From an uncultured Bacteroidales bacterium (GTDB taxonomy: Bacteria > Bacteroidota > Bacteroidia > Bacteroidales > VadinHA17), in assembly GCA_963743775.1 (NCBI GenBank), contig CAVURA010000018.1, positions 142,518 through 206,517 on the forward strand: DNA of 64,000 nt, written 5' to 3'. Positions 5,220 to 28,265 of the stretch are shown one piece after another. The notes under the pieces were generated by a model. The model was not told the origin of the DNA and ran no database searches. It was given only the letters and a program-made list of their open reading frames with translations. Numbering within the stretch: the stretch's first letter is position 1; each line of letters starts with the position of its first letter. A program made the position numbers and the translations under genes.

Positions 5220-5228
5220 TCGACAGGA

Positions 5229-5236: not shown

Positions 5237-5294
5237 CTACAGATACGAATAAGTCAGTAAAAAGTTCATGTCAATCTTCCTGACCACTTATTAG

Positions 5295-5302
5295 TATATT
5301 TG
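5295..5302 (+). promoter_or_regulatory. Bacteroidota -7 promoter box (TATATTTG)
   Basis: TAnnTTTG match 17 nt upstream of the ATG at 5319. This argues against the GTG at 5304 as the start codon. Confidence 0.45.
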
Positions 5303-5318
5303 TGTGGAATGCAGATTC

Positions 5319-7225: not shown

Positions 7226-7271
7226 AACTATACCGCTGAACTACTGATATTTCCAGAATTATTTGAAGCCC

Positions 7272-7853
7272 TTACCTCTTCAGGTGGCTCATCATCCACC
7301 AGCGCTGACGCTCTTCTTCTGATTTGTGGAAGATCTTCTTGTTGACATATTTTATGGCTTCCACGGTGTACAGTGCACGGGGATTGTAGAGATTGATAAG
7401 ATCAAGCACTTCCTTAATCATACTTCTGCGTGCAATGATATAGATGACAGCGACTTCTCCCTCTATTCCCTGCGCTTTGACGTTTGTGAAACCATAGCCT
7501 CTGTCGCTGAGTTCGGCGATCAGGTTGGTTGCATCCTTTCGGGTGATAACCCTTATCATCTCATGGCCTATTGCGAGCCTTTCCTCAAGCAGCATCCCGA
7601 CAAAATTGCCCGTCGCAAACCCGGCAGCATATGCAACATAGCAAACCCAGTTATCAAGGTCCTGCATTATACGGCTTATTGCCAGCAGCCAGATAAGAAC
7701 CTCAAAGAATCCGAAAAACGGGGCAACTCTCTTCATGCCCTTGGTGACAAAAATGATCCTCAGCGTGCCGAGGGAGACATCCATAATGCGGGCCACAAAG
7801 ATGAAGAGTGGCAGCAGAAGGTATGTAACTAATTCTGAATTAATGAATTCCAT
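7272..7853 (-). CDS. UPF0316/DUF2179 family membrane protein
   Basis: Trimmed to the ATG at 7853 (MEFINSELVTYLLLPLFIFVARIMDVSLGTLRIIF...). It has three TM segments plus a C-terminal DUF2179-like domain (TRKDATNLIAELSDRGYGFT). Confidence 0.7.
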   Translation of the reverse strand: MEFINSELVTYLLLPLFIFVARIMDVSLGTLRIIFVTKGMKRVAPFFGFFEVLIWLLAISRIMQDLDNWVCYVAYAAGFATGNFVGMLLEERLAIGHEMIRVITRKDATNLIAELSDRGYGFTNVKAQGIEGEVAVIYIIARRSMIKEVLDLINLYNPRALYTVEAIKYVNKKIFHKSEEERQRWWMMSHLKR

Positions 7854-7891
7854 GATAAAGTCAACTTTTTTAGAAGTTCCTAAGTTATGAT

Positions 7892-7899
7892 TATTTTTG
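7892..7899 (+). promoter_or_regulatory. Bacteroidota -7 promoter box (TATTTTTG)
   Basis: TAnnTTTG match 28 nt upstream of the ATG at 7927. It overlaps the TTG at 7897 offered by the ORF track, which favours the 7927 start. Confidence 0.4.
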
Positions 7900-7926
7900 A
7901 GACAGATACTCCCTGAACAACTGCAC

Positions 7927-9099
7927 ATGAGATTTCTCAAGGTATGCCTGTTTTTAGTTACCATTCTCCTGCCCGGGCTGTCGGCCGGTCAGGAGGCTGA
8001 CAGCGGCCCCACTCTTCCGCCGGCCGGTCAGGAGGCTGACAGCGTACTCACGGTCATGTTCACAGGAGACATCATGGGCCACGACGGACAGATCACATCA
8101 GCATATGATGATTCCACCGGGACTTATTCCTACGACAGTGTTTTCAGATATGTCTCACCGCTTTTAAGCGCAGCTGATATTGCCATTGGCAACCTTGAGG
8201 TCACCCTTGGCGGAAAACCATTCAAGGGGTATCCTGCCTTCAGTTCTCCTGATGAGTTGGCACAAGCATGCAGGGATGCGGGGTTTGACATACTTACCAC
8301 GGCGAACAATCACGCTGCAGACCGCGGACCAAAAGGAATAGCCCGTACCATCAGGGTACTTGACAGTCTCAATATCAAGCATACAGGTACGTGGATAAAC
8401 AGCGAAGCAAGAGACACACTCTCTCCCCTGATGATTTCTGCGAAAGGCATCAGTCTGGCATTGCTCAGTTATACTTACGGCACCAACGGAATAGTGGTGC
8501 CTCCTCCTGCCGTCGTATCTTATATGGATACAATCCGTATCTGTAATGATATTAAGGCTTCTGCTGAAAAGGGAGCTGACCTTGTCATAGTGAGCGTTCA
8601 CTGGGGAACAGAATATGACACCCTCCCCTCAGCTGAACAAAAACGGCTGGCTGCCGCCATGTTCAGAAGCGGCGCTGATATCATCATCGGATCGCATCCT
8701 CATGTGATACAGCCTATGACAGCATTGGTTGATTCCACTGAATTGACGGAACCTGTGGTTTGGTCAATGGGCAATTTCGTATCAAACCAGCGTCAGCAGA
8801 GAAGAGACGGAGGAGCCATGATCGGTCTTGAGCTGACGAAAAGAGGTGACCGGGTCTTTATAACTGAGGCAGGATATATCCTTACATGGGTTTATACCCC
8901 GACAGAAAACGGGAAACGCAGGTTCTGCATCCTGCCCTGCTCCGAATATGAGAACCATCCTGAGTTCTTCCAGTCGTCGTCTGACTATAATGCCATGATG
9001 GACTTTGTCACTGGTGCACGCCGGCTTCTCAACAGCTCGAACACCGGCTTCGGTGAAGTCATCAGTGCGCTCGACATGTGGACAAATCAGGTAAAGTAA
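7927..9099 (+). CDS. CapA/PGA_cap family metallophosphatase-like protein
   Basis: Signal peptide MRFLKVCLFLVTILLPGLSAG, followed by FTGDIMGHD, NLEV.L and TTANNHAADRG, which are typical of CapA. Confidence 0.8.
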   Translation: MRFLKVCLFLVTILLPGLSAGQEADSGPTLPPAGQEADSVLTVMFTGDIMGHDGQITSAYDDSTGTYSYDSVFRYVSPLLSAADIAIGNLEVTLGGKPFKGYPAFSSPDELAQACRDAGFDILTTANNHAADRGPKGIARTIRVLDSLNIKHTGTWINSEARDTLSPLMISAKGISLALLSYTYGTNGIVVPPPAVVSYMDTIRICNDIKASAEKGADLVIVSVHWGTEYDTLPSAEQKRLAAAMFRSGADIIIGSHPHVIQPMTALVDSTELTEPVVWSMGNFVSNQRQQRRDGGAMIGLELTKRGDRVFITEAGYILTWVYTPTENGKRRFCILPCSEYENHPEFFQSSSDYNAMMDFVTGARRLLNSSNTGFGEVISALDMWTNQVK

Positions 9100-9117
9100 A
9101 GGATCCCACAGAATTGA

Positions 9118-9125
9118 TATATTTG
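9118..9125 (+). promoter_or_regulatory. Bacteroidota -7 promoter box (TATATTTG)
   Basis: TAnnTTTG match 19 nt upstream of the ATG at 9144. Confidence 0.4.
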
Positions 9126-9143
9126 TAAAAAATCAGGGAAATC

Positions 9144-9854
9144 ATGGAAGGATCAACAATACTCCTCGCAGGTACGGCCGTCACAATCGGATTCATTCAC
9201 ACGCTTGTCGGACCTGATCATTATCTTCCGTTCATCGTTATGGGAGAGGCACGCAAGTGGACTATACGAAAGACAATGTTTATAACCTTTCTTTGCGGGA
9301 TAGGGCATGTCCTCAGTTCTGTCATCCTCGGATTTATAGGCATAGCAGCAGGCATTTCACTCTCAAAACTGGAGTTTTTTGAATCATTCAGGGGAAATAT
9401 TGCGGCCTGGCTTCTGATAGTTTTCGGTCTTGTCTATATGCTTATCAGCCTCCGTTCCCTTTACCGCAAAAAGAAGCACATTCATGAGCATCACCATACC
9501 GACGGCACTGATCATGAACATGAGCACGGTCATTTCAGCGGTCACTCTCATATCCATCTGGAAGACAAAAAAAACCTTACCCCCTGGATTCTTTTCCTTA
9601 TTTTCATCCTGGGACCCTGTGAGCCACTCATACCTATAGTGATGTACCCTGCTGCTGAAAACAATATCAGTGGTGTTGTGATAGTATCCCTGCTCTTCTC
9701 AGCGGTAACGATTGCCACTATGATGTCGGTCGTACTTGCTTTCAGGCTCGGGTTGAGTCGTATCAATCTAAATCCCCTGGAAAGATATGTGAACGTCATT
9801 GCAGGTGCCACAATACTTGTTTCAGGTGTTGCCATACAGTTTCTCGGCCTCTGA
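9144..9854 (+). CDS. HupE/UreJ-signature metal (Ni/Co-type) transporter with a His-rich loop
   Basis: 236-aa ORF with six predicted TM segments. TM1 contains GFIHTLVGPDH, which has the same spacing as the HupE/UreJ signature HPxxGxDH. The central loop is HIHEHHHTDGTDHEHEHGHFSGHSHIH. Confidence 0.45.
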   Translation: MEGSTILLAGTAVTIGFIHTLVGPDHYLPFIVMGEARKWTIRKTMFITFLCGIGHVLSSVILGFIGIAAGISLSKLEFFESFRGNIAAWLLIVFGLVYMLISLRSLYRKKKHIHEHHHTDGTDHEHEHGHFSGHSHIHLEDKKNLTPWILFLIFILGPCEPLIPIVMYPAAENNISGVVIVSLLFSAVTIATMMSVVLAFRLGLSRINLNPLERYVNVIAGATILVSGVAIQFLGL

Positions 9855-15194: not shown

Positions 15195-16373
15195 ATGCCC
15201 AGGATATTAGTCGTTGACGACGAAAAATCAATCAGGAACACCCTGAAAGACGTTCTTGAATATGAGAAATATGAGGTATTTCTTGCGGAAGATGGCGCCT
15301 CAGGAATAGACCAGTTCACCCAGGAAGCGTTTGATGTGGTGTTGTGCGACATCAAGATGGCCAAGATGGATGGCATAGAGGTTTTGCAGAAGCTCCTTGA
15401 GATTACTTCCGACGTGCCTGTCATAATGATTTCGGGTCACGGGAATATAGACACGGCAGTTGATTCAATCAAGAAAGGTGCCTTTGATTTCCTTGAAAAA
15501 CCGCTTGACCTGAACCGTCTTCTCATCACCATCCGTAACGCTCTTGAAAGGGGCTCTCTTATCTCACAGACAAAAGTCCTGAAGAAACAGGTCAGCAAAA
15601 AATTTGAGATTGTTGGCACTTCTCCTGCCATCATTGTTGTAAAGGAGATGATAGACAGAGTAGCTCCGACGGAGGCAAGGGTGCTCATCACAGGCGCCAA
15701 CGGTACGGGCAAGGAGCTTGTTGCCCATCAGATACATGAAAAAAGCAATCGCGCCAGAGGTCCTTTCGTTGAAGTCAACTGTGCCGCCATCCCTTCAGAA
15801 TTGATTGAGAGTGAGCTTTTCGGTCATGAAAAAGGGTCATTTACATCAGCCATTAAGCAACGCATAGGCAAATTTGAGCAGGCCACCGGAGGCACTATCT
15901 TCCTTGATGAGGTTGGAGACATGAGCCTTGCCGCGCAGGCTAAGGTTCTCAGGGCCCTCCAGGAGAGCAAGATCACACGGGTGGGTTCAGACAAGGACAT
16001 AAACGTCGATGTAAGGGTAATTGCCGCAACCAACAAGAATATACGCAGTGAGATTGACCGCAATAACTTCAGGGAAGATCTTTACCACCGGCTGAGTGTC
16101 ATTCTGATCCATGTGCCTACGCTTAATGAGCGAAGTGATGACATACCGCTCCTCGCTGACTATTTCAATACCCTTATCTGCAATGAGTACGGCATGGTAA
16201 AGAAAAAAATAAGGCCTGATGCCATAGCCGAGATGCAGAAGATCAAATGGACCGGGAATATAAGAGAGTTCAGAAATGTGCTTGAGAGGCTGATAATACT
16301 TTGCCCTGAAGAAATATCCGGCAGGGATGTAATTACCTATGCACACCCTGTCTCGGGTTTTAACGAAATATAA
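15195..16373 (+). CDS. sigma-54-dependent response regulator (REC + AAA+), with no C-terminal HTH
   Basis: REC domain (VVDDE...DIKM). The AAA+ domain has Walker A GANGTGKE, Walker B IFLDEV and GSFTSA in place of GAFTGA. The protein ends about 20 aa after the AAA+ lid. Confidence 0.85.
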   Translation: MPRILVVDDEKSIRNTLKDVLEYEKYEVFLAEDGASGIDQFTQEAFDVVLCDIKMAKMDGIEVLQKLLEITSDVPVIMISGHGNIDTAVDSIKKGAFDFLEKPLDLNRLLITIRNALERGSLISQTKVLKKQVSKKFEIVGTSPAIIVVKEMIDRVAPTEARVLITGANGTGKELVAHQIHEKSNRARGPFVEVNCAAIPSELIESELFGHEKGSFTSAIKQRIGKFEQATGGTIFLDEVGDMSLAAQAKVLRALQESKITRVGSDKDINVDVRVIAATNKNIRSEIDRNNFREDLYHRLSVILIHVPTLNERSDDIPLLADYFNTLICNEYGMVKKKIRPDAIAEMQKIKWTGNIREFRNVLERLIILCPEEISGRDVITYAHPVSGFNEI

Positions 16374-18733
16374 TGAAGAAAATATACATTGCCTTTGCGT
16401 ACATTCTCGTGATAATGGCAGCACTCACCACGAGGTGCGACAGGCAGCGGCATCCAGGACTCCCGGTATCATTCAATGACCGCTGGATGTTTATCAGGCA
16501 GGACTCAGCCAATATTGATAAAATTCTTCCCGGAAATATTCCCAACCATAAATGGGAAGATGTGACGCTGCCGCACACGGCATTCATCGAACCGCTTGTC
16601 GTCACAAATCAGCAGTGGACAGGCATCAGCTGGTACAAGAAAATTTACAGGGCACCCCGCGGGGATCACCGTCATCATACCGGCCTTCTTTTCGACGGGG
16701 TGATGAATGATGCCATCGTCTATCTTAACGGAGCCGAAATAGCCCGGCACACTGGAGGTTATTTGCCTTTCTATGTCGATCTCAGCAATGACCTCAGGTT
16801 TGGCAGGGAGAATGAGATCCTTCTCAGGGTTGATAACAGGGATAATCCCTCAATTCCTCCGGGCAAACCCCTTTCTGAGCTTGATTTTCTCTATTACAGT
16901 GGTATCTACCGCAATGTGTCCCTGTTTGTAAGTGACAAACTGCATATCACATCTGCTCCCGAAGCTGACACTCTTCTGGGAGGAGGTGTCATTACGGGCT
17001 TTCGCGATGTCAGCAAGGATGCCGCCACAGTCATTGTCTCAGTTCTGGTACAGAATGATGACAGAACACCACGGTCATTCTATCTGAAAAATACTCTTCT
17101 TGATGCCGCAGGAACACAAGTATCTGCATCGCTCTCCGAAGAGATCGAGATGGAGCCCGGGCAGCGCAGACGGCTGCTGTCAGAGGTAAGAGTGATGCAG
17201 CCGGCACTCTGGTCAAATGAACAGCCTTTTCTGTACACACTCAGGACAGAACTGCAGGCTGGCCAGAATGCCATAGACTGCAATGAGATACGCATTGGGA
17301 TAAGATCAGTGGAGATCACCAGGGACAACGGCCTGTTGCTGAACGGCAACCGTGTCAGCATCACCGGCACCAACCGGCACCAGGAGTACCCGTACATAGG
17401 CTACGCTCTCTCAGACAACGCAGCTTACCGTGATGCTTCTAAGATCAGGGATGCCGGATTCAATTTCGTGCGCTGTTCGCATTATCCCCCCGCCCCTGCC
17501 TTCCTTGATGCCTGTGATGAGCTTGGCCTTCTGGTTATGGATGCCATACCGGGATGGCAGTTCATCGGAGATTCCATATTCTGCGAGGCCTCCGTGCGTG
17601 ACACCCGTCTTATGTGCCGTCGCGACAGGAACCACCCGTCGGTGGTCATGTGGGAAGCATCACTGAATGAGACGATGATGCCGTATAGTTTCCTGAACAG
17701 GTTGCACCAGACAGTAAAGGAGGAACTTCCTTTCGGAAATAACTACACCTGCAGCTGGATGGACACTATCTGTGACGTCTTTATACCTGCCAGACAGCAT
17801 GCCAAAGCACCTGAGTACTGGAAAAACTATGACAAGAATAAGCCACTGCTCATCTGTGAATATGGCGACTGGGAATATTATGCACAGAATGCCGGCTTCA
17901 ATCAGACTGAATTCAGTGATCTGGAACCCGCGGCACGAAATTCGAGACAGTTGCGGTCTGCAGGCGAGAGAGGATTGCTGCAGCAGGCCTATAACTTCCA
18001 GGAAGCCCATAATGACAATCTCTTCGGGCCATGCTTCGGAGATGCCAACTGGCTGATGTTCGATTACAACCGCGGTTATGCTGCAGACATAGAGTCATCA
18101 GGAATAATGGATATTTTCAGGATACCGAAATTCACATACTGGTTCTATCGCAGCCAGTCCGATGACGGGCCTGTTTGCTTCATTGCATATTATAACCTTC
18201 CCTCATCGGGAAAAACAATAAGGGTGTACAGCAATGCAGACACTGTGCAGCTTTTCCGCAATGACACTCTCCTGGCAGTGCAGGGACCCGACAACGATGT
18301 TAGCACTGCAAATCTCACACATCCTCCTTTTACTTTTACTGCAGATGAGTATATACCCGGCACCATCAGGGCTGTTGGATTAAGAAAAGGATCAGAGTAC
18401 GGCATGCATTCAGTAACCACCCCGGGTCCTCCTGCAGCGCTTCGGTTATCGGTTGACTTCAGTAATAAACCGCTCCGGGCCGACGGTGCCGATGTCGTCT
18501 TTGTATATGCCACACTGGTTGATTCACTGGGATTCCCGGTTATGACTGCTGACTCAGTGGTAGAATTTTCTGTCAGAGGAAATGCCACGCTGATAGGAGA
18601 CAATCCTGTCAGGGCAGAGGCCGGCATTGCAACAATACTTCTCAGGGCTGGTACCAATCCCGGTAAAGTGATGGTGCATGCCTCTTCCGGCACGATGTCA
18701 AAGGCTGAGATTATGACGGAGACAAAGAGATAA
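16373..18733 (+). CDS. glycoside hydrolase family 2 (beta-galactosidase/beta-glucuronidase-like)
   Basis: 786-aa ORF with a sugar-binding N-domain, then TNRHQEYPY, RCSHYPP and NHPSVVMWEASLNE. Its start overlaps the regulator's stop (TAATG). Confidence 0.85.
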   Translation: MKKIYIAFAYILVIMAALTTRCDRQRHPGLPVSFNDRWMFIRQDSANIDKILPGNIPNHKWEDVTLPHTAFIEPLVVTNQQWTGISWYKKIYRAPRGDHRHHTGLLFDGVMNDAIVYLNGAEIARHTGGYLPFYVDLSNDLRFGRENEILLRVDNRDNPSIPPGKPLSELDFLYYSGIYRNVSLFVSDKLHITSAPEADTLLGGGVITGFRDVSKDAATVIVSVLVQNDDRTPRSFYLKNTLLDAAGTQVSASLSEEIEMEPGQRRRLLSEVRVMQPALWSNEQPFLYTLRTELQAGQNAIDCNEIRIGIRSVEITRDNGLLLNGNRVSITGTNRHQEYPYIGYALSDNAAYRDASKIRDAGFNFVRCSHYPPAPAFLDACDELGLLVMDAIPGWQFIGDSIFCEASVRDTRLMCRRDRNHPSVVMWEASLNETMMPYSFLNRLHQTVKEELPFGNNYTCSWMDTICDVFIPARQHAKAPEYWKNYDKNKPLLICEYGDWEYYAQNAGFNQTEFSDLEPAARNSRQLRSAGERGLLQQAYNFQEAHNDNLFGPCFGDANWLMFDYNRGYAADIESSGIMDIFRIPKFTYWFYRSQSDDGPVCFIAYYNLPSSGKTIRVYSNADTVQLFRNDTLLAVQGPDNDVSTANLTHPPFTFTADEYIPGTIRAVGLRKGSEYGMHSVTTPGPPAALRLSVDFSNKPLRADGADVVFVYATLVDSLGFPVMTADSVVEFSVRGNATLIGDNPVRAEAGIATILLRAGTNPGKVMVHASSGTMSKAEIMTETKR

Positions 18734-18775
18734 TAAGATCACTGAGCCAGTCTCCGGGACTTAAGCCAGCCCTTT

Positions 18776-21700
18776 TCAGAACCGGAAGTAGATAAAAGGC
18801 TGCAGGACTTCCGTACCCACCTTATTAAGCAGAATGGCGACTCCTATCGCGATCAGAAACTTTATCACCATGGGCATCCTGATGAAGAGCCCCCTGTATG
18901 CTTCCTTGACAGTAACAGGAAGAAAATGCAGTATATAGCCTGATGCAATAAGGATGAGGACAGGCAGATACGCCATGAGAACCACCCTGTAGTTTCCCGG
19001 ACTGAAGGAAGAAAATATCTGTGACAGCATAACGCCTGCATCTTCCAAAGATCCTGCACGGAAAAAGATCCAGGCAAAGCTCACAAAGTTAAAGGTTATG
19101 ATTATCCCGGCAAGGTGGGCAATACGGCTTTTCCTTTTCACACCCCGGAAGATCCATTGCCATATCCTGTCTAACACCAGCGCTATGCCGTGCAATCCGC
19201 CCCAGAGCACGAATCTTGTTGCCGCACCATGCCACAGGCCTCCGATCAGCATCGTTACCATTAAGCTAATTCCTGTGCGTACCGCTCCATGCCGGTTTCC
19301 TCCGAGAGGTATATAAAGGTAATCTTTCAGCCACCTTGACAGGGTAATATGCCACCGTTTCCAGAAATCACTGATGTTCGACGCCTTGTATGGAGAGTTG
19401 AAGTTCAGTGGCAGCCTGAACCCCATCAGCATGGCGACACCGATTGCAATATCAGTGTAGCCTGAGAAATCGCAGTAGATCTGAAGGCCGTATCCGTAAA
19501 CTGACATAAGGTTCTCGAAGCCTGAATATAGCGCGGGTGTATCAAAAACCCTGTCAATGAAACCGGCGGCTATAAAATCAGAAATGATCACCTTCTTTAT
19601 CAGCCCTTGCAGGATCAGGAACAGGCTGTGTCCGAACTCATTACGGCTGATGGTATATTCTCCCTTCATCTGGGGGACAAACTCAGAGGCCCTTACGATC
19701 GGACCCGCAACCAGCTGCGGGAAAAAGGTATGATAGAAGGAGTAGTCTATAAAGTTTCTGACCGGCTCTATCTTACCCCTGTAAACATCAATGTTATAGC
19801 TTAAAGCCTGAAAGGTGAAGAATGATATACCAATAGGGAGTATAATCTGTGATACATCAAAACTGGTACCGAACACATTGTTTGACCAGGCTGAGAAGAA
19901 ATCATAGCTCCTGAATGATGTGCCAAGAAGGGAATTAATGCTTTCGGTAAAGAAGCCTGCATATTTGAAATAAGAAAGTAATCCCAGCGAAACAATAATA
20001 TTAAGGATGAGCCAGAATCTCTTCATCGGTCTGCCATTGGCCCTGTTTGTGTACAATGCTGTCAGGTAGGTCGAAACGCAGCTGAACAGCAGGAGGATAA
20101 AGAAGAGGCCTCCTGCTTTATAATAAAAATATAGACTGACCAGTAAGAGCCAGGTGTGGCACATTGCCCTTTTATTCCTGATAAGGGCAAAACCGGCCAT
20201 TACAACCAGGAGGAAGACCCAGAATGCCGGCGTTGTAAAAATAAAAGTCTTCTGCGGATTATATTTAAGGAATGTCAGAACAGATCTATGGTGCTCAGCA
20301 TGCGGTTCTTCAACTGTTAACACAGTATCGGCAACAGAAGATGCTGCGGTTTCAGGAACAGGAATCACTCCGGGGTCAGATGCCGCCAGAAGTGTATCAG
20401 GAGGTTTACTTACTGCCGTGGTCCTGGCTATAAGCAGATCCGAATAGATCTTTAAAGCTATCGTGTCTGCCCCTGCATTGGAGAGATGAGTGAGATCCTT
20501 TCCGGCCAGGGGCGGCATATGATTATACCACCTGACTATTGAGCCCTTGCCTCCCATGGCTTCCCAGGCATCCCAGAATATCACTCCGCTTCGTACCGCT
20601 GCTCTTTTCTGGGCATCCCTGATAGCCGGGATATTCTTGTATGGTATGATTGTATCTTCTGATTTCAGGGCCATGTCGGTCAGGCTGACAAGGACCACCG
20701 GAGCGCCGCCCGAAACATTTCTGAGCCAGTCTACCTGCTTGGCAAGACCCTCCTCATAATAATGGTACTCGCTCCTGACATTTCTGACAACATTAAGTCC
20801 GAACTGATGGAATATCATGTCAGGGTGAAGCTTCGAAAAACAACCTGCAACACCTTCCGGATCAGTCATCACAAACTCGAGCCCGGCACTGCCTCTGACG
20901 GGGATATTATCAACAATCACCCCATGGTTGCTTTCCAGGCTGAGGGCATAAATATCCGGAGAGCTGCGACCGGTGAATTCAATTGTGACATCTGAAAGTG
21001 ATGGTAGCGGTGTGCTGTATTCAAGTGGGCCTTCACCTGTCTCAAGCATTGCGAAATCAAGCAGTTTACTGCCTGACCTTACGCTTACGAATACCGTATC
21101 AGGATTATTCCCATAGAATATCCGCAGATTCTCATATTTTGAAACTGATTCGTCGGCTCCGGGAACAGGTGTGATTTTAACCGAGGCATAAAGAGGTGTT
21201 CTCAGCGTGTCCTGCGGAGGTTTGAAACGGCAGACAGCGAGCATTGGTCCAAGCCTGTTGTGGGGCAGCACTCCGCTTCTGTAATCAAGCAGGGTGTACC
21301 TGACCCAGTTGGCCGATGACTTGACGACGTATGAGCGGGTATACATCACGGGCATGACAGGCGATATCAGCCCCGGGCCCGTTCCGCCGCCGCTTTCTCT
21401 AAGCTGTTTGCGAAGGAAAGAGGTCATCCTGTCACCCTCAATCTGCGAATCACCGTAGAACATTATTCTTACCTGCTTCCCGGCGGCAAGCGAATCTCTT
21501 ATCGCATCACCTGGAAAGAAAGGAGTGACAGTAACACGGTTCACGGAATCTTTCAATGCCGGGGCGGGCAGGGAGTCACGTGTGATCACCTCTGGCGGGG
21601 CTGTACCAGGCAGAACTGCCGCATGAGTGGCCGTGTCAGCCTTAACTGACTGAACCGGAACTGTATCAGCCAGCACTTCCTGAACCGGAACAGAATCAGC

Positions 21701-21847
21701 CGGAACAGATTGTTGCAGCAAGGTGTCAGAGGGTACTTTGAACAACGACTTATCACCCCAGAGCCTCCCGTCACCGGCTGCAAGGCTCAGGATAAACAGC
21801 GTCAGAACGACTGCCAGCAAAAAAAGAAAGATCCTGCCGGGGCGCAT
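18776..21847 (-). CDS. fusion protein: N-terminal TM anchor + SGNH/GDSL-like domain + C-terminal MBOAT (AlgI/PatA-like) O-acyltransferase
   Basis: 1023-aa ORF. The SGNH blocks are FYGDSQIEG (block I Ser), GLNV (block III) and DLTH (block V DxxH). The MBOAT region has FFTFQALSY, QLVAGPIVR, YCDFSGYTD, FWKRWHITLSRWL.DYLYIPLGGNR and GLWHGA. Confidence 0.8.
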   Translation of the reverse strand: MRPGRIFLFLLAVVLTLFILSLAAGDGRLWGDKSLFKVPSDTLLQQSVPADSVPVQEVLADTVPVQSVKADTATHAAVLPGTAPPEVITRDSLPAPALKDSVNRVTVTPFFPGDAIRDSLAAGKQVRIMFYGDSQIEGDRMTSFLRKQLRESGGGTGPGLISPVMPVMYTRSYVVKSSANWVRYTLLDYRSGVLPHNRLGPMLAVCRFKPPQDTLRTPLYASVKITPVPGADESVSKYENLRIFYGNNPDTVFVSVRSGSKLLDFAMLETGEGPLEYSTPLPSLSDVTIEFTGRSSPDIYALSLESNHGVIVDNIPVRGSAGLEFVMTDPEGVAGCFSKLHPDMIFHQFGLNVVRNVRSEYHYYEEGLAKQVDWLRNVSGGAPVVLVSLTDMALKSEDTIIPYKNIPAIRDAQKRAAVRSGVIFWDAWEAMGGKGSIVRWYNHMPPLAGKDLTHLSNAGADTIALKIYSDLLIARTTAVSKPPDTLLAASDPGVIPVPETAASSVADTVLTVEEPHAEHHRSVLTFLKYNPQKTFIFTTPAFWVFLLVVMAGFALIRNKRAMCHTWLLLVSLYFYYKAGGLFFILLLFSCVSTYLTALYTNRANGRPMKRFWLILNIIVSLGLLSYFKYAGFFTESINSLLGTSFRSYDFFSAWSNNVFGTSFDVSQIILPIGISFFTFQALSYNIDVYRGKIEPVRNFIDYSFYHTFFPQLVAGPIVRASEFVPQMKGEYTISRNEFGHSLFLILQGLIKKVIISDFIAAGFIDRVFDTPALYSGFENLMSVYGYGLQIYCDFSGYTDIAIGVAMLMGFRLPLNFNSPYKASNISDFWKRWHITLSRWLKDYLYIPLGGNRHGAVRTGISLMVTMLIGGLWHGAATRFVLWGGLHGIALVLDRIWQWIFRGVKRKSRIAHLAGIIITFNFVSFAWIFFRAGSLEDAGVMLSQIFSSFSPGNYRVVLMAYLPVLILIASGYILHFLPVTVKEAYRGLFIRMPMVIKFLIAIGVAILLNKVGTEVLQPFIYFRF

Positions 21848-21860
21848 AACATGTATCAGA

Positions 21861-23411
21861 TCAACCTTTTCTTCTGATCCTCAGCCTCTGTCCCACCTGT
21901 ATCCTGGAAGCATCGGAAATATTGTTCAACTTAAGGATATCCGTTGCAGACACACCGTCAAACAATTTTGCTATGTCCCATATGGTGTCACCATTCCGGA
22001 CTGTATAGAACTCATAGTCAGTGTCTGCCGAAGCAGTCACTGCCAGTTTAGCCGGCTCTGATGCCGTCGAAACACTTATGGCGCTGTTACCTGCCCTTTT
22101 CTGCTTATCCGCAAAACTCATTGAATTAACCTTACTGTAATATTCGGCCTTGGCAGGATCAACGTATATGGTAAGCTTCTGCCCTACCCTGATTGTATTG
22201 CGGTAGATATTATTCCAGTATCTCAGGTCAGAAAGTCCGACATTATACCATTCTGAAATGAACCCCAGGTTATCACCGTCCCTGACCACATAGGTCAGTT
22301 TCGTTCTCCCGTTTACATCGGGTGTGGAATAGGTCGACTGTGCAGGCGCTGACGTCTGATTGACCCTCGTAAGATACTGGTCCTTCCTGTAACCGGTTAT
22401 GGTATCAGCCATATCGATGAACTCCCCAAGCCTGTCGACAGGCAGGGTTATAGAGCTGGGTCTGGTTTTACCTGGCACAAGTCCCGTACGGTACTGCGGA
22501 TTAAGTGCCTTAAGCTCTTCCAGGGGAAGGTCAAGCACAGCGGCAATCTGCTCAAGGTGTATGTCCTGTGAGACCATCACAGTGTCAACTGCCAGCGGAA
22601 GATCTATCTGTATCGGGGTGATATTATGTTCACGGTAGTAATTCATCGAGTAAGTGGCTGCAACATATGCGGGAATGTAACCACGCGTCTCCCTTGGCAG
22701 CCGGTAATAAATCTCCCAGTAATCCTTGCGGTTCCCTGATCGCCTTATGGCTTTGTTTACGTTACCCGGGCCGCAGTTATAGGCTGCAATGACAAGAATC
22801 CAGTCGTTATATATGCCGTAAAGGTCTTTCAGGTATTTTGCGGCGGCATGTGTCGCTTTGACGGGATCACGGCGCTCATCCACAACTGAATTGATAGTGA
22901 GTCCGCACATGCGGCCCGTGCTGTACATAAACTGCCACAGTCCGGTAGCCCCCACCCTGCTGACAGCATTGGGGTTAAGGGCAGATTCGATGACAGCCAT
23001 ATATTTAAGTTCGACAGGAAGACCGTATGCATCAAAGATATCTTCGATCATGGGGAAATAATAATCCTGCAGCCCAAGCATTATCCTGAACTTGTCAACC
23101 TTTTTTTCAGTGTATACGTGAATATGGTTTCTTATGATATTGTTGTAAGGAAGGATTATGACCGAATTAATCCTGCCGATGCGGTCTTTATATACGGAAT
23201 CGGAAAACTCACCGATAACTGAATCCTGCTGCAGCAGATCGCTTCTGTCAACAGACATACGTATAAACCAGTTGTTAAGCAGGCTGTCGAGATCACGTTC
23301 AATAAGTTCCGTAGAGTCATCATTTCTGATTATAATGGTATCATTTACTGCATGAAGCATAAATGGGAACAGAACAACAAGAAGCGTGAGGACAATCCTT
23401 TTTATGGTCAT
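21861..23411 (-). CDS. lytic murein transglycosylase (MltD-like) with LysM domains
   Basis: SLT core VIESALNPNAVSRVGATGLWQFM and AAYNCGPGNV, plus C-terminal LysM repeats (YVVRDGDNLGFISEWY, YTVRNGDTIWDIAKLF). Confidence 0.85.
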   Translation of the reverse strand: MTIKRIVLTLLVVLFPFMLHAVNDTIIIRNDDSTELIERDLDSLLNNWFIRMSVDRSDLLQQDSVIGEFSDSVYKDRIGRINSVIILPYNNIIRNHIHVYTEKKVDKFRIMLGLQDYYFPMIEDIFDAYGLPVELKYMAVIESALNPNAVSRVGATGLWQFMYSTGRMCGLTINSVVDERRDPVKATHAAAKYLKDLYGIYNDWILVIAAYNCGPGNVNKAIRRSGNRKDYWEIYYRLPRETRGYIPAYVAATYSMNYYREHNITPIQIDLPLAVDTVMVSQDIHLEQIAAVLDLPLEELKALNPQYRTGLVPGKTRPSSITLPVDRLGEFIDMADTITGYRKDQYLTRVNQTSAPAQSTYSTPDVNGRTKLTYVVRDGDNLGFISEWYNVGLSDLRYWNNIYRNTIRVGQKLTIYVDPAKAEYYSKVNSMSFADKQKRAGNSAISVSTASEPAKLAVTASADTDYEFYTVRNGDTIWDIAKLFDGVSATDILKLNNISDASRIQVGQRLRIRRKG

Positions 23412-23421
23412 TTTCTGCGTT

Positions 23422-24087
23422 TTAAAATGTTCGTGTAAGTGTAAGAGTTAACCCCGGCGCAAGGCCGTAAGGAGAAACAGTAACCGGGATCAGCAATGCC
23501 TTCAGGTCATCAGTAATATCATAGTCAAAAAGACTTGCGTCGACCTGCGCATCGATGATGGTTACCAGGTACCATGCAACTATTCCGATGTAAGACAGGT
23601 CACGGTATCTGCGGTAATATTCCACTCCGTTCAGCAGCTGGGTTGTGACCCATGCCTCAGTGGAGGGATTGTAAGTTTCCGGATGGAGAACCGGGTCATA
23701 GTCTTCAGGATTAAGATTACTCATGCCTTTTATATCGAGGTAGCTGTCTGTCTCGGGAACAAGATCAGTGAAATCCTTGTAGGCATTGATATAAGCATTA
23801 TAATTGGTTCCGTTAAAGGAGGCGGCGTAACCCAACGCACCGAAGCCTGCATAGACTATCGGCAGTTTCCAGTATTTACGGTTGTAGATCTGTCCCATTC
23901 CTGGAAGAGCTGCTGCATACATTGTGGCCCTGATGGGCTCAAGGGTATATTTTTTTACCTTTTTTTCAGCCATGACAGGAATGGAATCCTGTGACCAGGC
24001 TCCGCAGGTTACAACACACATAAAAAAAAAGAATACCGCTATTTTTGTCAACAGCTTCAAAAGCAAACAGTTTTCGTTTGCCGGCAA
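23422..24087 (-). CDS. DUF5683 domain protein
   Basis: Contains the motif ALPGMGQIYNRKYWKLPIVYAGFG. This is the usual position between parB and mltD in Bacteroidota. The start at 24087 is a TTG. The next ATG (24021) would remove the signal peptide. Confidence 0.65.
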   Translation of the reverse strand: MPANENCLLLKLLTKIAVFFFFMCVVTCGAWSQDSIPVMAEKKVKKYTLEPIRATMYAAALPGMGQIYNRKYWKLPIVYAGFGALGYAASFNGTNYNAYINAYKDFTDLVPETDSYLDIKGMSNLNPEDYDPVLHPETYNPSTEAWVTTQLLNGVEYYRRYRDLSYIGIVAWYLVTIIDAQVDASLFDYDITDDLKALLIPVTVSPYGLAPGLTLTLTRTF

Positions 24088-24097
24088 ATATAATTAA

Positions 24098-24985
24098 TTA
24101 CCTATTAAGTTTATCGAGCAGGGCGATAATGCGTTCCATTTCATCGTTATCCGAGAATGGTATCACTATTTTTCCTCTTCCCTTTTCGTTAATGCGGAAC
24201 TGCACCTCAGAAGCGAAAAGTTTGCTCAGCTGCCCGGCAAGTTCCCCATATTCGGTATTGAGTTTCTTCCTCTTATCTCCCCTGGCAGGGTCCTTGGCGG
24301 CCTGGCTCTGGAAGTGCCGTACCAGATCTTCTGTAGCCCTGACCGACAGGTCTTCCTGAATTACGTGGTAGAAGATATTAATCTGTTTAATGGGGTCTTC
24401 AATATTCACAAGTGTGCGGGCATGTCCCATTGTGAGGCTTCTGTTGCGTATGCCAAGCTGTATCTCGGCAGGCAGGCGCAGGAGACGGAGATAATTCGAC
24501 ACTGTTGATCGCTGCTTGCCAACCCTGTCGCTCATCTGCTCCTGAGTGAGGTTGCACTCTTCTATCAGGCGCTGGTAGGTTATTGCCACCTCCATGGCGT
24601 CAAGATCTTCTCTCTGGATATTCTCCACGAGGGCCATCTCGAGCATCGCAGTGTCATCAGCCGTACGCACATAGGCTGGCACATGCGTCAGTCCTGCTAT
24701 ACGTGAGGCACGCAGCCTGCGCTCACCTGCTATAAGCTGGAACCGTCCGTCGCCTGAATCCCTGACAGTGAGTGGCTGGACAATGCCCAGCTGCCGTATT
24801 GATGCTGCAAGCTCTTCCAGTGCCTGGGCATCAAAACGCGTACGCGGCTGAAAGGGGTTGCTGTCAATGGAGTTGATGTCTATCTGCAGATTCACCTCGA
24901 CCTTTTTTTCGAGCACCTCTTTTTCAACACCATCTATAAGGGCTCCGAGGCCCCTGCCCAACGGGCTCTTTTTCACTGTGTTCAT
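24098..24985 (-). CDS. parB: chromosome partitioning protein ParB
   Basis: Contains GLGALI, NPFQPR and IAGERRLRAS, plus an HTH region. Confidence 0.95.
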   Translation of the reverse strand: MNTVKKSPLGRGLGALIDGVEKEVLEKKVEVNLQIDINSIDSNPFQPRTRFDAQALEELAASIRQLGIVQPLTVRDSGDGRFQLIAGERRLRASRIAGLTHVPAYVRTADDTAMLEMALVENIQREDLDAMEVAITYQRLIEECNLTQEQMSDRVGKQRSTVSNYLRLLRLPAEIQLGIRNRSLTMGHARTLVNIEDPIKQINIFYHVIQEDLSVRATEDLVRHFQSQAAKDPARGDKRKKLNTEYGELAGQLSKLFASEVQFRINEKGRGKIVIPFSDNDEMERIIALLDKLNR

Positions 24986-25002
24986 ACGACGGATAGCAGT
25001 TT

Positions 25003-25782
25003 TTAGTTCTTCTGTCTGGCCTCCACCCTCTCGAGGAGCTCACGCGCCAGATTGAGATAGTTGACCGTACCTCTTGATTCCGCATCGTAGAGTATAGCAG
25101 GCTGGCCATAACTTGGGGCCTCCGACAGCTTCACATTTCGCTGAATGATAGTGTTGAAGACCATCTGCTGAAAATGCCTCGTGACCTCTTCAACAACCTG
25201 ATTGGCAAGCCTGAGACGCGAATCATACATCGTCAGCAGAAATCCTTCGATCTCAAGCATGGGGTTCAGGTTGGTCTGAATAATCTTAATTGTATTCAGC
25301 AGCTTACCCAGCCCTTCAAGCGCAAAATATTCGCACTGAACGGGGATAATAACAGAATCGGCGGCGGTCAGCGCATTAACAGTCAGCAATCCGAGTGAAG
25401 GTGAACAGTCAATAAGTATGAAGTCATAGTCAGATGATATTCCCGCAAGCGCTTTCTTAAGGGTCTTCTCTCTTTCCGGCCTGTCAAGCATCTCAATCTC
25501 AGCCCCCACCAGGTCAATGTTTGAAGGTATGACAGAAAGGTTGTCAATGTTACATTTGACAACAGCCTCGCGCGAATTCACCCCGTCAATGAGACAGTCG
25601 TAGATAGTCACCTTCACCTGTTTGGAGTCTATTCCCACGCCTGAGGTGGCATTTGCCTGCGGATCGGCATCAACAATCAGTACCTTCTTTTCGAGCGCTG
25701 CCAGACTTGCAGCCAGATTGATGGCTGTAGTTGTCTTTCCTACTCCTCCCTTCTGATTTGCCAGTGCAATTATCCTTCCCAT
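25003..25782 (-). CDS. parA: chromosome partitioning ATPase ParA/Soj
   Basis: Deviant Walker A KGGVGKTT. Full-length 259-aa ParA-type ATPase. Confidence 0.95.
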   Translation of the reverse strand: MGRIIALANQKGGVGKTTTAINLAASLAALEKKVLIVDADPQANATSGVGIDSKQVKVTIYDCLIDGVNSREAVVKCNIDNLSVIPSNIDLVGAEIEMLDRPEREKTLKKALAGISSDYDFILIDCSPSLGLLTVNALTAADSVIIPVQCEYFALEGLGKLLNTIKIIQTNLNPMLEIEGFLLTMYDSRLRLANQVVEEVTRHFQQMVFNTIIQRNVKLSEAPSYGQPAILYDAESRGTVNYLNLARELLERVEARQKN

Positions 25783-25926
25783 ATAACCCTTTTTACCATT
25801 AATTTAATGAGCTCCAAATTTACAATATATGCCTATCCCGGGTAGCCGTGAGAAGTTTGTAATTGTAAACATTTCCCCTGTGGTTATTAACACTTTTTGA
25901 ACATCCGCAGGCGCAAAACAGACCGG

Positions 25927-27045
25927 TTAATTCCGGGCAGAGGCAGTGACAGTGATCTCAAAGAGCCGGGGCCAGTACTTTCCTGTCACAAAGAGACGCT
26001 TATTTGCAGCATCCCAGGCTATGCCGTTCAGGACGTCTGTCTCCTGTGAGTGGTCCTCCCGGGGAAGGATATTTGCCAGCTCGACATATCCCAGGACTTT
26101 GCCTGACAGGGGATCAATGCGTGCTATGTGCTCTGTCTGCCAAATATTCGCCCAGAGCTCTCCGTCGATCATTTCAAGCTCATTGAGACTGTCCACGATA
26201 CCTTTGTTATCCCATACCTCCACTGAGGAGAGGACGTTGAAGTCAGCATCAAGGAACCGGATGACATTAGTACCATCACTCATAACCAGCTTGTTATCCA
26301 TGGTTGTGAGGCCCCATCCCTGAGTCTGGTAATATATTTTGTTTAACTGGGTAAGTGTTTTCTTATCATAAACGAACCCCACTTTTGTGGTCCATGTCAG
26401 CTGATAAATGCGGTCATCAAGCAGTGCCACACCCTCGCCGAACAGCGATCCTTCAAGGTTTACCTGGCTGACCACTTTACCCGTCGCGGCTTCTACCTTT
26501 CTGAGGGTTGACTGGCCTTGCTGGCCGGTACCTTCATAAAAGTAACCCTCATCATATACCAGTCCCTGTGTATACGCATGCCTGTCATGAGGGTAACTTT
26601 TCACCACTTTATACCGATATGTCACCGGGGTGATGTCTGAGAGAAGCGACACAAAAAGGCTCACTGTCTGTGGTTTCGAAACAGGAGAGAAAGCCACGAC
26701 CCTGAGCGCGAGCCTGCCCGGTTTGCCTGCAGGTTCCAGTTCCACGGATGCCGGAAGCTCATAAATCGTGCTTTTCCTGCTGCCGCCGACCCACAGCTGA
26801 ACAGAGTCGATCTTTACCAATCCGGCAGCCTGAGTCACAGAGAAAGTTATTTTGTCAGAACAGATAAAACTGGCATTATCAGCAGGTGAAAGGACTTCTA
26901 TAAGTCGCTTTGCAGGTAAAGCATTTGTCCCTGCAGCAGTTACTCCGGCAACTGCCCCGCTCTTACCGTCTGAAGACCCTGAGCATGAGATAACAGATAC
27001 AAGTATCAGCAGAAAAAGAATTGAATATATGGTTTTTCTCTTCAT
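25927..27045 (-). CDS. glutaminyl-peptide cyclotransferase (beta-propeller type) with an N-terminal Ig-like domain
   Basis: Lipoprotein signal (VISC). Propeller motifs: YPHD..AYTQGL, EGTGQ.G.S.L, FGEG, GWGLT and NELE..DGELWANIW. Confidence 0.8.
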   Translation of the reverse strand: MKRKTIYSILFLLILVSVISCSGSSDGKSGAVAGVTAAGTNALPAKRLIEVLSPADNASFICSDKITFSVTQAAGLVKIDSVQLWVGGSRKSTIYELPASVELEPAGKPGRLALRVVAFSPVSKPQTVSLFVSLLSDITPVTYRYKVVKSYPHDRHAYTQGLVYDEGYFYEGTGQQGQSTLRKVEAATGKVVSQVNLEGSLFGEGVALLDDRIYQLTWTTKVGFVYDKKTLTQLNKIYYQTQGWGLTTMDNKLVMSDGTNVIRFLDADFNVLSSVEVWDNKGIVDSLNELEMIDGELWANIWQTEHIARIDPLSGKVLGYVELANILPREDHSQETDVLNGIAWDAANKRLFVTGKYWPRLFEITVTASARN

Positions 27046-27054
27046 CCGGCAATG

Positions 27055-27477
27055 TCATTTTTTCCCAAACAAGCTGAAGCGCCTTGTCTTGATAGCTCTC
27101 ATCGCCTGTTCCTCCCTTTCGGCCCAGGGGTCTATCATATTGAGTATCTCGCCCCATCCCGGGAAGCCCCCGGCATTCTTGTCGTCAATAAAAATATCCG
27201 CGTTTAGTTTCCTTGGAGTATCATCCACCCACTTCTCTTCCGGGTAATTACGGTTGACGGCGTAGAATTCAATGCCGTTTGAACGGCAGTATTCCACAGC
27301 TTCGTCAAGCTCTGTCCCTGTCCTGATCGTCCAGAGAATGAGCAGTGCACCCCTCTTCTGCAGCTCCCTGAGCGTAATAAAGGCAAAGAGTCTTTCCTTT
27401 CCGATTTCAGGATAGTCGTGCTCAACGATTGTGCCGTCGAAGTCAACCGCAATTTTGATGTTGGTAAGATCTCTCAT
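27055..27477 (-). CDS. small HAD-like hydrolase-fold protein (hypothetical)
   Basis: Trimmed to the ATG at 27477. IAVDFDGTIV resembles the DxDx(T/V) motif, and there is a downstream IDD. Confidence 0.5.
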   Translation of the reverse strand: MRDLTNIKIAVDFDGTIVEHDYPEIGKERLFAFITLRELQKRGALLILWTIRTGTELDEAVEYCRSNGIEFYAVNRNYPEEKWVDDTPRKLNADIFIDDKNAGGFPGWGEILNMIDPWAEREEQAMRAIKTRRFSLFGKK

Positions 27478-27521
27478 AATCCACCACAAAAATAAACAAA
27501 TAATAGTTGCCTATAATATTG

Positions 27522-27529
27522 TAATTTTG
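27522..27529 (+). promoter_or_regulatory. Bacteroidota -7 promoter box (TAATTTTG)
   Basis: TAnnTTTG match 20 nt upstream of the ATG at 27549. Confidence 0.4.
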
Positions 27530-27548
27530 CTATGCTTTTAAAAGAGAG

Positions 27549-28265
27549 ATGACAAAAAACGTACCGAACTTCATTACTTTGCTAAACCTTCTTTCCGGTT
27601 TTGCGGCAACAGTTCTTGCCTCAAAGGGTTATAATGAGTATGCTGCGCTGCTAATCATTGCAGGAGGTATCTTTGATTTTTGTGACGGTTTTGCGGCGCG
27701 TCTTCTGAAATCCTATTCAGCCATCGGAAAGGAGCTTGACAGTCTTGCTGATGTGGTGACCTTTGGCATCGCTCCTGGTGCCATTGTCCTCAACCTGCTT
27801 ATCGTTGCCGGCATGGCTATGGCACCTGCTTTCGTCCTGGCCTGTCTCATCCCTGCCGCCTCGGCACTGCGCCTGGCGAAATTCAATACTGACGCCACTC
27901 AGAGCACTTCCTTCAGAGGCCTTGCCACGCCGGCAAGCGCCTTCACGGTGATCTCATTTGTGATTGCCGCCGAATACAGCAGCTGTGCCGTCTGTGACAC
28001 GCTTGTGACATCATCATGGTTTATCGGAGCTCTCTCTCTCTTCCTGGCAGTGATGATGCTTGTCAACACAAGGATGTTTTCATTGAAATTCTCTCATCTC
28101 AGATGGGGCGGGAATGAAGAGAGGTATCTCCTGGCAGGAATCAGCCTGCTGCTCCTGCTGGTATTCCGGCTGGCCTCACCGCCGCTGATAATGGCAGCCT
28201 ACATTGTGATTTCACTCGTTTTTACTGTTATCAGGGGCAGGAAAACACCTTCAACGGCTGTGTAG
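27549..28265 (+). CDS. pssA: CDP-diacylglycerol--serine O-phosphatidyltransferase
   Basis: CDP-alcohol phosphatidyltransferase motif DGFAAR...GKELDSLAD in a 238-aa polytopic protein. Confidence 0.85.
   Translation: MTKNVPNFITLLNLLSGFAATVLASKGYNEYAALLIIAGGIFDFCDGFAARLLKSYSAIGKELDSLADVVTFGIAPGAIVLNLLIVAGMAMAPAFVLACLIPAASALRLAKFNTDATQSTSFRGLATPASAFTVISFVIAAEYSSCAVCDTLVTSSWFIGALSLFLAVMMLVNTRMFSLKFSHLRWGGNEERYLLAGISLLLLLVFRLASPPLIMAAYIVISLVFTVIRGRKTPSTAV

Follow-up and report, generated by a model that had tools for sequence, protein, structure and literature searches.

The stretch of DNA analysed here, called the window throughout, comprises 64,000 nucleotides (64 kb) of contig CAVURA010000018.1 (positions 142,518 to 206,517 of the forward strand) in GenBank assembly GCA_963743775.1, the genome of an uncultured Bacteroidales bacterium of the VadinHA17 lineage. 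Between window positions 18776 and 25782 it carries five consecutive open reading frames (ORFs) on the minus strand, the last of which encodes a 1023-aa protein that joins a periplasmic module of the SGNH superfamily to a membrane-bound O-acyltransferase (MBOAT) domain. This fusion protein, its relationship to known acylation systems and the part it may play in the O-acetylation of peptidoglycan are the subject of this report.

The cluster opens with a gene for a ParA-family partition ATPase of 259 aa (25003..25782, minus strand, as for all features of the cluster; Pfam AAA_31 1e-70, CbiA). This is followed by genes for ParB (295 aa; 24098..24985; ParB_N, HTH_ParB and ParB_C, with TIGR00180 at 168.8 bits, above its cutoff), a DUF5683 protein (221 aa; 23422..24087; PF18935 7e-43), an MltD-like lytic transglycosylase (516 aa; 21861..23411; SLT 1e-30 and two C-terminal LysM domains, 2e-26) and the SGNH-MBOAT fusion (18776..21847, stop codon included), the last defined by its ORF, profile matches, homologues and a structural model. 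Spacings between the genes are 17, 10, 10 and 13 nt in that order, and the ORFs are just as an earlier, sequence-only reading of this DNA had described them, namely five same-strand genes 10-17 nt apart. Judged by its profile matches, the transglycosylase is best described as MltD-like by architecture and not as an MltD equivalog, since it scores 199 bits against the NCBIfam MltD model NF008050, for which the equivalog cutoff is 508.

Fusion of the two halves is widespread in Bacteroidales and in metagenome bins of the Bacteroidota. A protein search recovered more than 100 clusters of proteins of ~1000 aa with full-length coverage and 50-100% identity, all from these sources and labelled in the databases only as 'MBOAT family O-acyltransferase', DltB or AlgI. 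A genome scan using one genome per GTDB species returned at least 592 loci encoding relatives of this module; the locus counts given below refer to the best 80 of these. Sixty-five of the 80 contain a single uninterrupted SGNH-MBOAT ORF, four have the halves in overlapping frames, four are cut by a contig end and seven have separate genes. The loci with overlapping frames (L018, L025, L071 and L076) lie within the fused clade and are probably long-read frameshift errors, or recent pseudogenes. They illustrate that assemblies do contain frame errors, and adjacent split genes occur in relatives, so we considered the concern raised earlier that two neighbouring genes had been joined into the 1023-aa ORF by an assembly or sequencing error. 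The same uninterrupted ORF, however, recurs in 65 of the 80 independent species-level genomes, produced by many studies and assemblers, and the fused tips form one clade in which the four interrupted cases are the exceptions. Together with the full-length protein clusters, these observations exclude an assembly artefact for practical purposes, and we regard its probability as negligible.

An Ape1-type module joined to an MBOAT domain

The fusion protein begins with a predicted N-in signal anchor (residues 1-24; 21776..21847) consisting of MRPGR and a hydrophobic helix (Kyte-Doolittle 2.96 for residues 6-24, preceded by positive residues; modelled helix 3-24). A first linker (residues 25-107; 21527..21775), unconserved and disordered in the AlphaFold model (predicted local distance difference test score, pLDDT, <50), leads to the periplasmic module (residues 108-475; 20423..21526), an SGNH fold with an inserted beta-sandwich that was recognised from profile searches, Foldseek and its invariant blocks. 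The second linker, at which the two halves are fused (residues 476-528; 20264..20422), is likewise disordered (pLDDT <50 for 477-522) and is followed by the MBOAT acyltransferase domain (residues 529-1023; 18779..20263). Conservation was assessed in a set of 71 fused homologues that are 50-90% identical, among which the first linker ranges from 42 to 144 aa and the second from 42 to 122 aa (14% identity). Anchor, SGNH blocks and MBOAT profile are thus all present in one polypeptide, as had been proposed from the sequence, and the topology signals of the anchor place a 510-residue segment that includes the SGNH module in the predicted periplasm, again in agreement with the sequence-only reading. 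Disordered linkers tether the module to an MBOAT domain whose N-terminus, as in PatA, faces the periplasm. A periplasmic N-terminus, as predicted for PatA (PMC12148441), makes it possible to fuse a periplasmic module ahead of the MBOAT domain.

A short tandem repeat that had been picked out in the first linker is real: its 22-mer occurs at 21650 and 21680 where none is expected by chance, the first copy lying one base from the position originally assigned to it (21649), and Tandem Repeats Finder delimits the repeat as 21636-21706 with a period of 30, 2.4 copies and 78% matches. We rejected the repeat as a functional element because it sits in a disordered linker of variable length and 12% identity and has no conserved counterpart among the homologues.

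The catalytic motifs of the SGNH module lie at residues 132-134 (GDS), 350-352 (GLN) and 451-454 (DLTH). All four SGNH blocks (GDSQxEGDR, DNxPxRGSAGLEF, GLN and DxxH) are invariant in the homologues, including the Ser-His-Asp triad and the canonical Gly and Asn residues of the oxyanion hole: Ser134 (catalytic; 21446-21448), Gly319 (block II; 20891-20893), Asn352 (block III; 20792-20794) and Asp451/His454 (20486-20497), each with verified coordinates. The Pfam match to Lipase_GDSL_2 (residues 304-459) reaches 30.2 bits against a gathering score of 32.9 and is by itself below threshold, so that SGNH identity is secured by the profile search and by structure. In the AlphaFold model the module is compact, with pLDDT ~90, and among the homologues it retains 66-68% identity without indels. 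Between blocks I and II lies an insertion of ~145 residues (residues ~161-305; 20933..21367) that was overlooked in the sequence-only reading; it is all-beta in both the full-length and the domain models and shows 66% identity with zero indels in the fused homologues.

Sequence and structure both lead from this module to Ape1. A single-sequence phmmer search of the PDB finds Neisseria meningitidis Ape1 (4k3u) at E 2e-8, and with a family profile the match strengthens to E 9.4e-29, joined by Campylobacter jejuni Ape1 (8gld/8gkd) at 1e-12; the profile aligns to 4k3u in two stretches that correspond to block I and to blocks II-V. Ape1 peptidoglycan O-acetylesterases are the only significant sequence relatives of the module in the PDB, and the homology extends over the SGNH blocks, taking in the extended Ape1 block I (GDSxxxGDxxTxxLRKxL) and the FWxxxxAMGG motif. 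A domain model of the module (pLDDT 85.7; predicted template modelling score, pTM, 0.84) gave, in Foldseek, 4k3u at E 1.7e-21 (template modelling scores of 0.68/0.77 over 374 columns that include the inserted sandwich) and 8gkd at E 4e-21. The top five matches are all Ape1 (E 2e-21, template modelling scores of 0.72-0.77), and the next match, at 1e-8, is 13 orders weaker. Foldseek with the full-length model again returned Ape1 for the module, and DltB for the C-terminal half. The two-domain Ape1 fold, a beta-sandwich inserted after SGNH block I, is accordingly seen in the predicted structure, and we conclude that the module is a homologue of Ape1, the O-acetyl-peptidoglycan esterase. Its inserted sandwich corresponds to the family 35 carbohydrate-binding module (CBM35) of Ape1, as this is described in PMC12148441 and 10.1101/2021.09.23.461501; a segment of roughly 100 residues after motif I is also what defines the Ape1a and Ape1b proteins (PMC1199599). 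Since the module is covalently held at both ends, by the transmembrane anchor and by the MBOAT domain, it cannot be a free periplasmic protein as Ape1 is.

The sequence-only reading had cast the SGNH half as PatB-like, and this assignment fell. The module has no match to the PatB family DUF459 (PF04311) in Pfam at E up to 0.01, its PDB sequence matches include no PatB chain at E up to 10, and none of its 50 best fold matches is described as PatB. Identity with AlgX/AlgJ, DHHW (PatB1), WssI or DltD was rejected as well, as Pfam returned only Lipase_GDSL_2 and none of these proteins is among the top PDB matches. The suggestion, made in the sequence-only reading, to look for an Ape-type esterase elsewhere in the genome is answered in part by the fusion itself; tblastn found no further Ape1-like gene in the window.

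Assignment of the C-terminal half as a bacterial MBOAT of the polymer-acylating kind held up. Residues 698-928 match PF03062 with an E-value of 2.7e-32 (112.8 bits against a cutoff of 27), the domain matches DltB (6bug) at E 3e-27 by sequence, and DltB is also the best fold match of this half. His833 and His873, the latter within a WHG motif (19229-19231), are invariant in the 71 homologues, and the C-terminal sequence PFIYFRF is found in 70 of them. The translated protein ends in the hexapeptide FIYFRF (residues 1018-1023, Tyr1020 within; 18779..18796), which fits the FXYXXF motif and is preceded by modelled helices at 953-974 and 993-1012, so that the hexapeptide is carried on two extra transmembrane helices in the manner of PatA-type proteins. 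The linkage to a PatB (DUF459) gene that also marks the PatA type is lacking, since neither the fusion nor the adjoining genes match DUF459. For C. jejuni PatA it has been shown that the motif Tyr becomes auto-acetylated from acetyl-CoA in a His-dependent manner; in the case of Neisseria gonorrhoeae PatA, the acetylated peptide (FIYANF) can act as the donor to PatB (PMC12148441). The fusion has both the catalytic His and the C-terminal FXYXXF of PatA, and the membrane half is a bacterial polymer-acylating MBOAT of the PatA/AlgI/DltB-like kind.

Conserved gene order and split relatives

The link to a lytic transglycosylase gene proposed in the sequence-only reading extends well beyond this genome: in 77 of the 80 loci, an MltD homologue ends <800 nt before the start of the SGNH match. 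ParA, ParB and DUF5683 precede it in 70, and nine of the remaining ten loci are cut by a contig end. The gene order ParA-ParB-DUF5683-MltD-SGNH-MBOAT is therefore conserved, whether the last two are fused or separate, and it recurs with split SGNH and MBOAT genes in a complete genome (CP070687.1, locus L001). In locus L080 (6619-13930) a class II aminoacyl-tRNA synthetase gene (tRNA-synt_2b and HGTP_anticodon) stands ahead of mltD in place of parAB and the DUF5683 gene, and the stops and starts of mltD, two SGNH genes (SGNH1 and SGNH2, described below) and the MBOAT gene overlap by 1-11 nt. Because this locus keeps an overlapping mltD without the partition genes, the link to the transglycosylase appears to be the tighter of the two.

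Several side observations concern this neighbourhood. The DUF5683 gene is kept between parB and mltD across deeply diverged Bacteroidales (the 70 loci mentioned above). Loci L078 and L081 (in the latter at 5225-9434) have a CarboxypepD_reg/Plug protein and a His_kinase/LytTR two-component pair inserted between mltD and SGNH1, a hint that in these two lineages the acetylation genes are regulated locally. Downstream of the split pair of L001 (11279-17539 of that locus) lie genes for a family 2 glycosyltransferase (GT2), a methyltransferase, DUF6311, a radical SAM protein and PMT_2, a set that resembles glycan synthesis and is not conserved in the window.

The split relatives indicate how the fusion may have come about. 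What we call SGNH1 is a stand-alone protein of ~500 aa that likewise has a transmembrane anchor and linker, is 34-39% identical to the module and is followed by a separate MBOAT gene of ~510 aa whose product ends in PFIYF[QK]F. Split SGNH1 matches the fusion over residues 1-~470, and the separate MBOAT matches it over residues 526-1023; because the two align to successive halves, we take the fusion to be an end-to-end join whose second linker marks the former gene boundary. In L072, L078, L080 (11175-12404) and L081 (11151-12359) a gene for a secreted paralogue of ~410 aa, SGNH2, lies between SGNH1 and the MBOAT gene. SGNH2 has the insertion too and is the most similar of these proteins to Ape1 (2.5e-25, compared with 1.5e-12 for split SGNH1 and 2e-8 for the fused module). 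Its family numbers 1078 proteins, and locus tags of members adjoin SGNH1 genes in other bins. A tblastn search for a second gene of the SGNH2 or Ape1 kind found none in the window, nor any within 10 kb at the 65 fused loci. Two of the 120 listed homologues of L080 SGNH2 (P0407 and P0463) carry precomputed matches to PF04311, the PatB family, in addition to GDSL families, which could blur which paralogue is the transferase; L080 SGNH2 itself has no PF04311 match at E up to 0.01.

At 50% identity the module has 601 cluster relatives at E up to 1e-30, and the best 150 are almost all stand-alone proteins of 470-530 aa, on which ground we regard the split state as diverse and ancestral. A neighbour-joining tree of the module, built from only the 80 best genome matches and rooted at its midpoint, groups every fused sequence into a single clade, apart from a second clade that holds the split ones. 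The ancestral order would then have been mltD, a transmembrane-anchored SGNH1, a secreted and more Ape1-like SGNH2 (likely an esterase) and the MBOAT gene; SGNH2 would have been lost from the locus before SGNH1 and the MBOAT gene were joined end to end.

The surroundings of the cluster in the window add a few further features. A gene for a glycoside hydrolase of family 2 (GH2; 786 aa) converges on the end of the fusion gene, with a stop-to-stop gap of 42 nt; it is preceded, with a one-base overlap, by a gene for a sigma-54-dependent response regulator (392 aa), and the two together span 15195-18733 on the plus strand. Just upstream of parA is a glutaminyl cyclase gene (25927-27045, minus strand) whose N-terminal match to the bacterial Ig domain Big_7 is weak and below the Pfam cutoff; most of the related loci have a homologue of this cyclase 4.3-5.6 kb ahead of the SGNH match. 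The intergenic gap upstream of parA, at 144 nt, is the only long one of the cluster. Scans of 18300-27600 for sigma-70 promoters and intrinsic terminators gave counts not above those of shuffled sequences. The Bacteroidetes-type -7 promoter consensus is TAnnTTTG, and TAAATTTG (25815-25822, minus strand), which lies in this gap 33 nt upstream of the parA start, fits it and is presumably worth keeping as a lead only; the motif occurs 38 times in the window against 37.8 expected, which is chance level. Farther away, a thiamine pyrophosphate (TPP) riboswitch (Rfam RF00059; 62.3 bits, above the gathering score) at 5129-5225 on the minus strand stands directly upstream of a 726-aa ORF (2894-5074, minus strand).

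A candidate acetyl relay

We lean, by a modest measure, towards the view that the fusion is a single-chain acetyl relay that would O-acetylate peptidoglycan, with the Ape1-type domain acting as the transferase. By analogy with PatA and PatB (PMC12148441), His873 would transfer an acetyl group from cytoplasmic acetyl-CoA to Tyr1020 of the C-terminal shuttle peptide. This peptide would then swing to the tethered SGNH module and acetylate Ser134, from which the group would pass to O-6 of N-acetylmuramic acid (MurNAc) in glycan strands that the inserted sandwich would hold in place. The modification would block the co-encoded MltD-type lytic transglycosylase, as well as lysozymes, where it is laid down. 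From the near-invariant SGNH blocks, His833, His873 and PFIYFRF in the 71 homologues, we infer that the protein is probably an active enzyme.

Several considerations argue for the module as the transferase. An SGNH acceptor is required by an MBOAT that uses a Tyr shuttle, and neither the cluster nor the rest of the window offers any SGNH domain other than the module. In the split loci SGNH1 always stays with the MBOAT and is anchored as PatB is, by a single transmembrane helix and a long disordered linker, whereas the more Ape1-like SGNH2 is dispensable. O-acetylation requires patA and patB and nothing beyond these two genes, while ape1 only trims (PMC12148441). Finally, no Ape2/PatB is listed for Bacteroides and Porphyromonas, whose O-acetylpeptidoglycan (OAP) clusters have the form ape1b-ape1c-pat, and yet in the two Bacteroides species tested 27-69% of the peptidoglycan was O-acetylated (Weadge 2005; PMC1199599). 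As for the acceptor, homology to Ape1 over both domains and the conserved MltD neighbour point to peptidoglycan. Lytic transglycosylases are stopped by O-acetylated peptidoglycan, and in Neisseria LtgA and Ape1 work together (PMC7083599).

Several points weigh against a peptidoglycan acetyl relay of this kind. The best structural and sequence relatives of the module are esterases and not transferases, and in block II its R318-G319-S320 aligns with N-G-A of Ape1, so that the canonical Gly is kept. PatB and OatA, the two structurally characterised peptidoglycan O-acetyltransferases, have Ser or Asn at this position, a substitution believed to promote transfer at the expense of hydrolysis (PMC12148441); by this measure the module looks like an esterase, as far as its sequence goes. 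The full-length AlphaFold model has a pTM of 0.48, with pLDDT <50 for the C-terminal motif, which is too low to judge the geometry between Ser134, Tyr1020 and His873. For the MBOAT half, NCBIfam gives only a sub-threshold DltB match. Glycosyltransferase-type neighbours in L001 leave room for another glycan substrate. From the gene spacing alone we infer that the cluster may be co-transcribed, and the neighbour-joining tree, with its midpoint rooting and its sample of the 80 best matches, is consistent with the genes having fused once, at the root of a large group of uncultured Bacteroidales.

The block II sequence and the relationship to two crystallised Ape1 esterases, the nearest relatives in both sequence and fold, are what would be expected if the tethered module were itself an O-acetyl-peptidoglycan esterase placed beside an acetyl donor. 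Such an enzyme would edit or limit acetylation and license MltD, with transfer carried out by an unlinked SGNH protein or by the MBOAT itself. It would be in keeping with the requirement that peptidoglycan be de-O-acetylated before lytic transglycosylases can act, and with the dependence of Ape1 on LtgA for full function in Neisseria (PMC7083599 and 10.1101/2021.09.23.461501). We nevertheless hold this alternative to be quite unlikely. It would leave the acetyl-Tyr shuttle without an acceptor SGNH in the locus, no second one having been found in the window or within 10 kb at the 65 fused loci. The more Ape1-like secreted SGNH2 is the protein that can be dispensed with in the split loci, while SGNH1 is always beside the MBOAT; MBOATs of this class are not known to acylate a polymer unless they have an SGNH partner (PMC12148441), and an esterase fused to its own acetyl donor would set up a futile cycle.

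A relay could also operate as we propose and deliver its acetyl group to a different envelope glycan, such as a capsule, an exopolysaccharide or a sugar linked to lipopolysaccharide, as AlgI/AlgJ/AlgX, WssH/WssI and PatA1/PatB1 do. MBOAT-SGNH pairs acylate several polymers (PMC12148441, PMC9487903), sandwiches of the CBM35 type bind various glycans, and in L001 the GT2, methyltransferase, DUF6311 and PMT_2 genes follow the pair. These polysaccharide-type genes, however, are not conserved, the window having the convergent GH2 gene in their place, and the module has no Pfam match to the AlgX, DHHW or DUF459 families. Both of its domains instead match the peptidoglycan-specific Ape1, with the gap of 13 orders in E-value to the next fold match, and the neighbour with SLT and LysM domains in 77 of 80 loci, in overlapping frames in L080, is peptidoglycan-specific too. 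Another glycan as the acceptor is thus improbable in our judgement, though it deserves somewhat more weight than a remote chance, and peptidoglycan is the substrate we retain for the relay.

Comparison with known systems and implications

Among the closest known systems is the PatA-PatB-Ape1 OAP system of Neisseria and Campylobacter, which shares several features with the fusion. Its MBOAT has the catalytic His, the C-terminal FXYXXF Tyr shuttle and the periplasmic N-terminus; its SGNH partner is carried on one transmembrane helix and a long disordered linker; and it includes an Ape1-family module with a CBM35-type insertion and a functional link to lytic transglycosylases. The fusion, by contrast, is one polypeptide in place of three, with the position of PatB held by an Ape1-type module that has the canonical block II Gly. 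The fusion locus has no separate esterase, and its gene stands behind mltD and parAB and not in a patA-patB-ape1 operon. Also close are the ape1b-ape1c-pat clusters of Bacteroides and Porphyromonas (PMC1199599), which belong to the same phylum, have Ape1-type SGNH genes upstream of an MBOAT gene with no Ape2/PatB listed, and include one SGNH protein with an insertion after motif I; the split order SGNH1-SGNH2-MBOAT matches theirs in the kinds of gene. In the fusion, however, SGNH1 and the MBOAT form one chain and there is no second SGNH; in the split loci SGNH1 and SGNH2 both have the insertion, the lack of which defines Ape1c; and the reported clusters lie beside a cation-efflux gene and not mltD.

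OatA and other AT3-SGNH fusions likewise combine a membrane acyl translocase and an extracytoplasmic SGNH domain in one chain with a relay from Tyr to the SGNH Ser, and OatA also targets MurNAc O-6. They differ in that the membrane domain here is an MBOAT, which is unrelated to AT3, in that the order is reversed, with an N-terminal SGNH that has its own signal anchor, and in that this SGNH is of the Ape1 type, with the inserted sandwich and a canonical block II. The AlgI-AlgJ-AlgX, WssH-WssI, PatA1-PatB1 and DltB-DltX-DltD systems also pair an MBOAT with an SGNH-superfamily partner that acylates an extracytoplasmic polymer, and have FXYXXF on the MBOAT or on DltX. Theirs are separate proteins, though, with SGNH partners of the AlgX, DHHW and DltD families, which are unmatched here, and their substrates are alginate (AlgI), cellulose (WssH), secondary cell-wall polysaccharide (PatA1) and teichoic acid (DltB). 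The premise of the sequence-only reading that known MBOAT systems use a separate SGNH protein is stated in a 2022 review and in the 2025 PatAB paper, where fusions are of the AT3-SGNH type (PMC9558356, PMC12148441). No description of a natural MBOAT-SGNH or Ape1-PatA fusion was found in the literature searched, which is not proof of absence. The parts of the protein are known families, and it is their combination that is undescribed in that literature: an MBOAT-SGNH chain, in the order reverse to that of OatA, with a partner from the Ape1 esterase family.

Natural fusion of an MBOAT to an SGNH module in at least 65 species-level genomes is independent evolutionary evidence for direct hand-off of the acyl group from one to the other. 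Hand-off from PatA to PatB as separate proteins could not be reconstituted, owing to nonspecific labelling (PMC12148441), and a pair already joined in one chain is an appealing subject for biochemistry and cryo-electron microscopy. Conserved linkage to mltD, at times with translational overlap, connects the enzyme that would install the O-acetyl groups with the one that these groups block.

For the Bacteroidota, the Ape1-family partner bears on a question that dates from 2005, namely which protein acetylates the peptidoglycan of Bacteroides and Porphyromonas when their clusters have only Ape1-type SGNH genes (PMC1199599). A tentative answer, which we find plausible without giving it an even chance, is that the peptidoglycan O-acetyltransferase of this phylum may have an Ape1 fold, an esterase paralogue that retained the canonical block II Gly and the CBM35-type sandwich having been recruited as the acceptor of an MBOAT and later welded to it in one large clade. 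If this is true, the fusion would be the first natural single-chain MBOAT-SGNH relay and would identify the transferase of the Bacteroidetes OAP clusters, and the non-canonical oxyanion turn of PatB and OatA would not be required for transferase activity.

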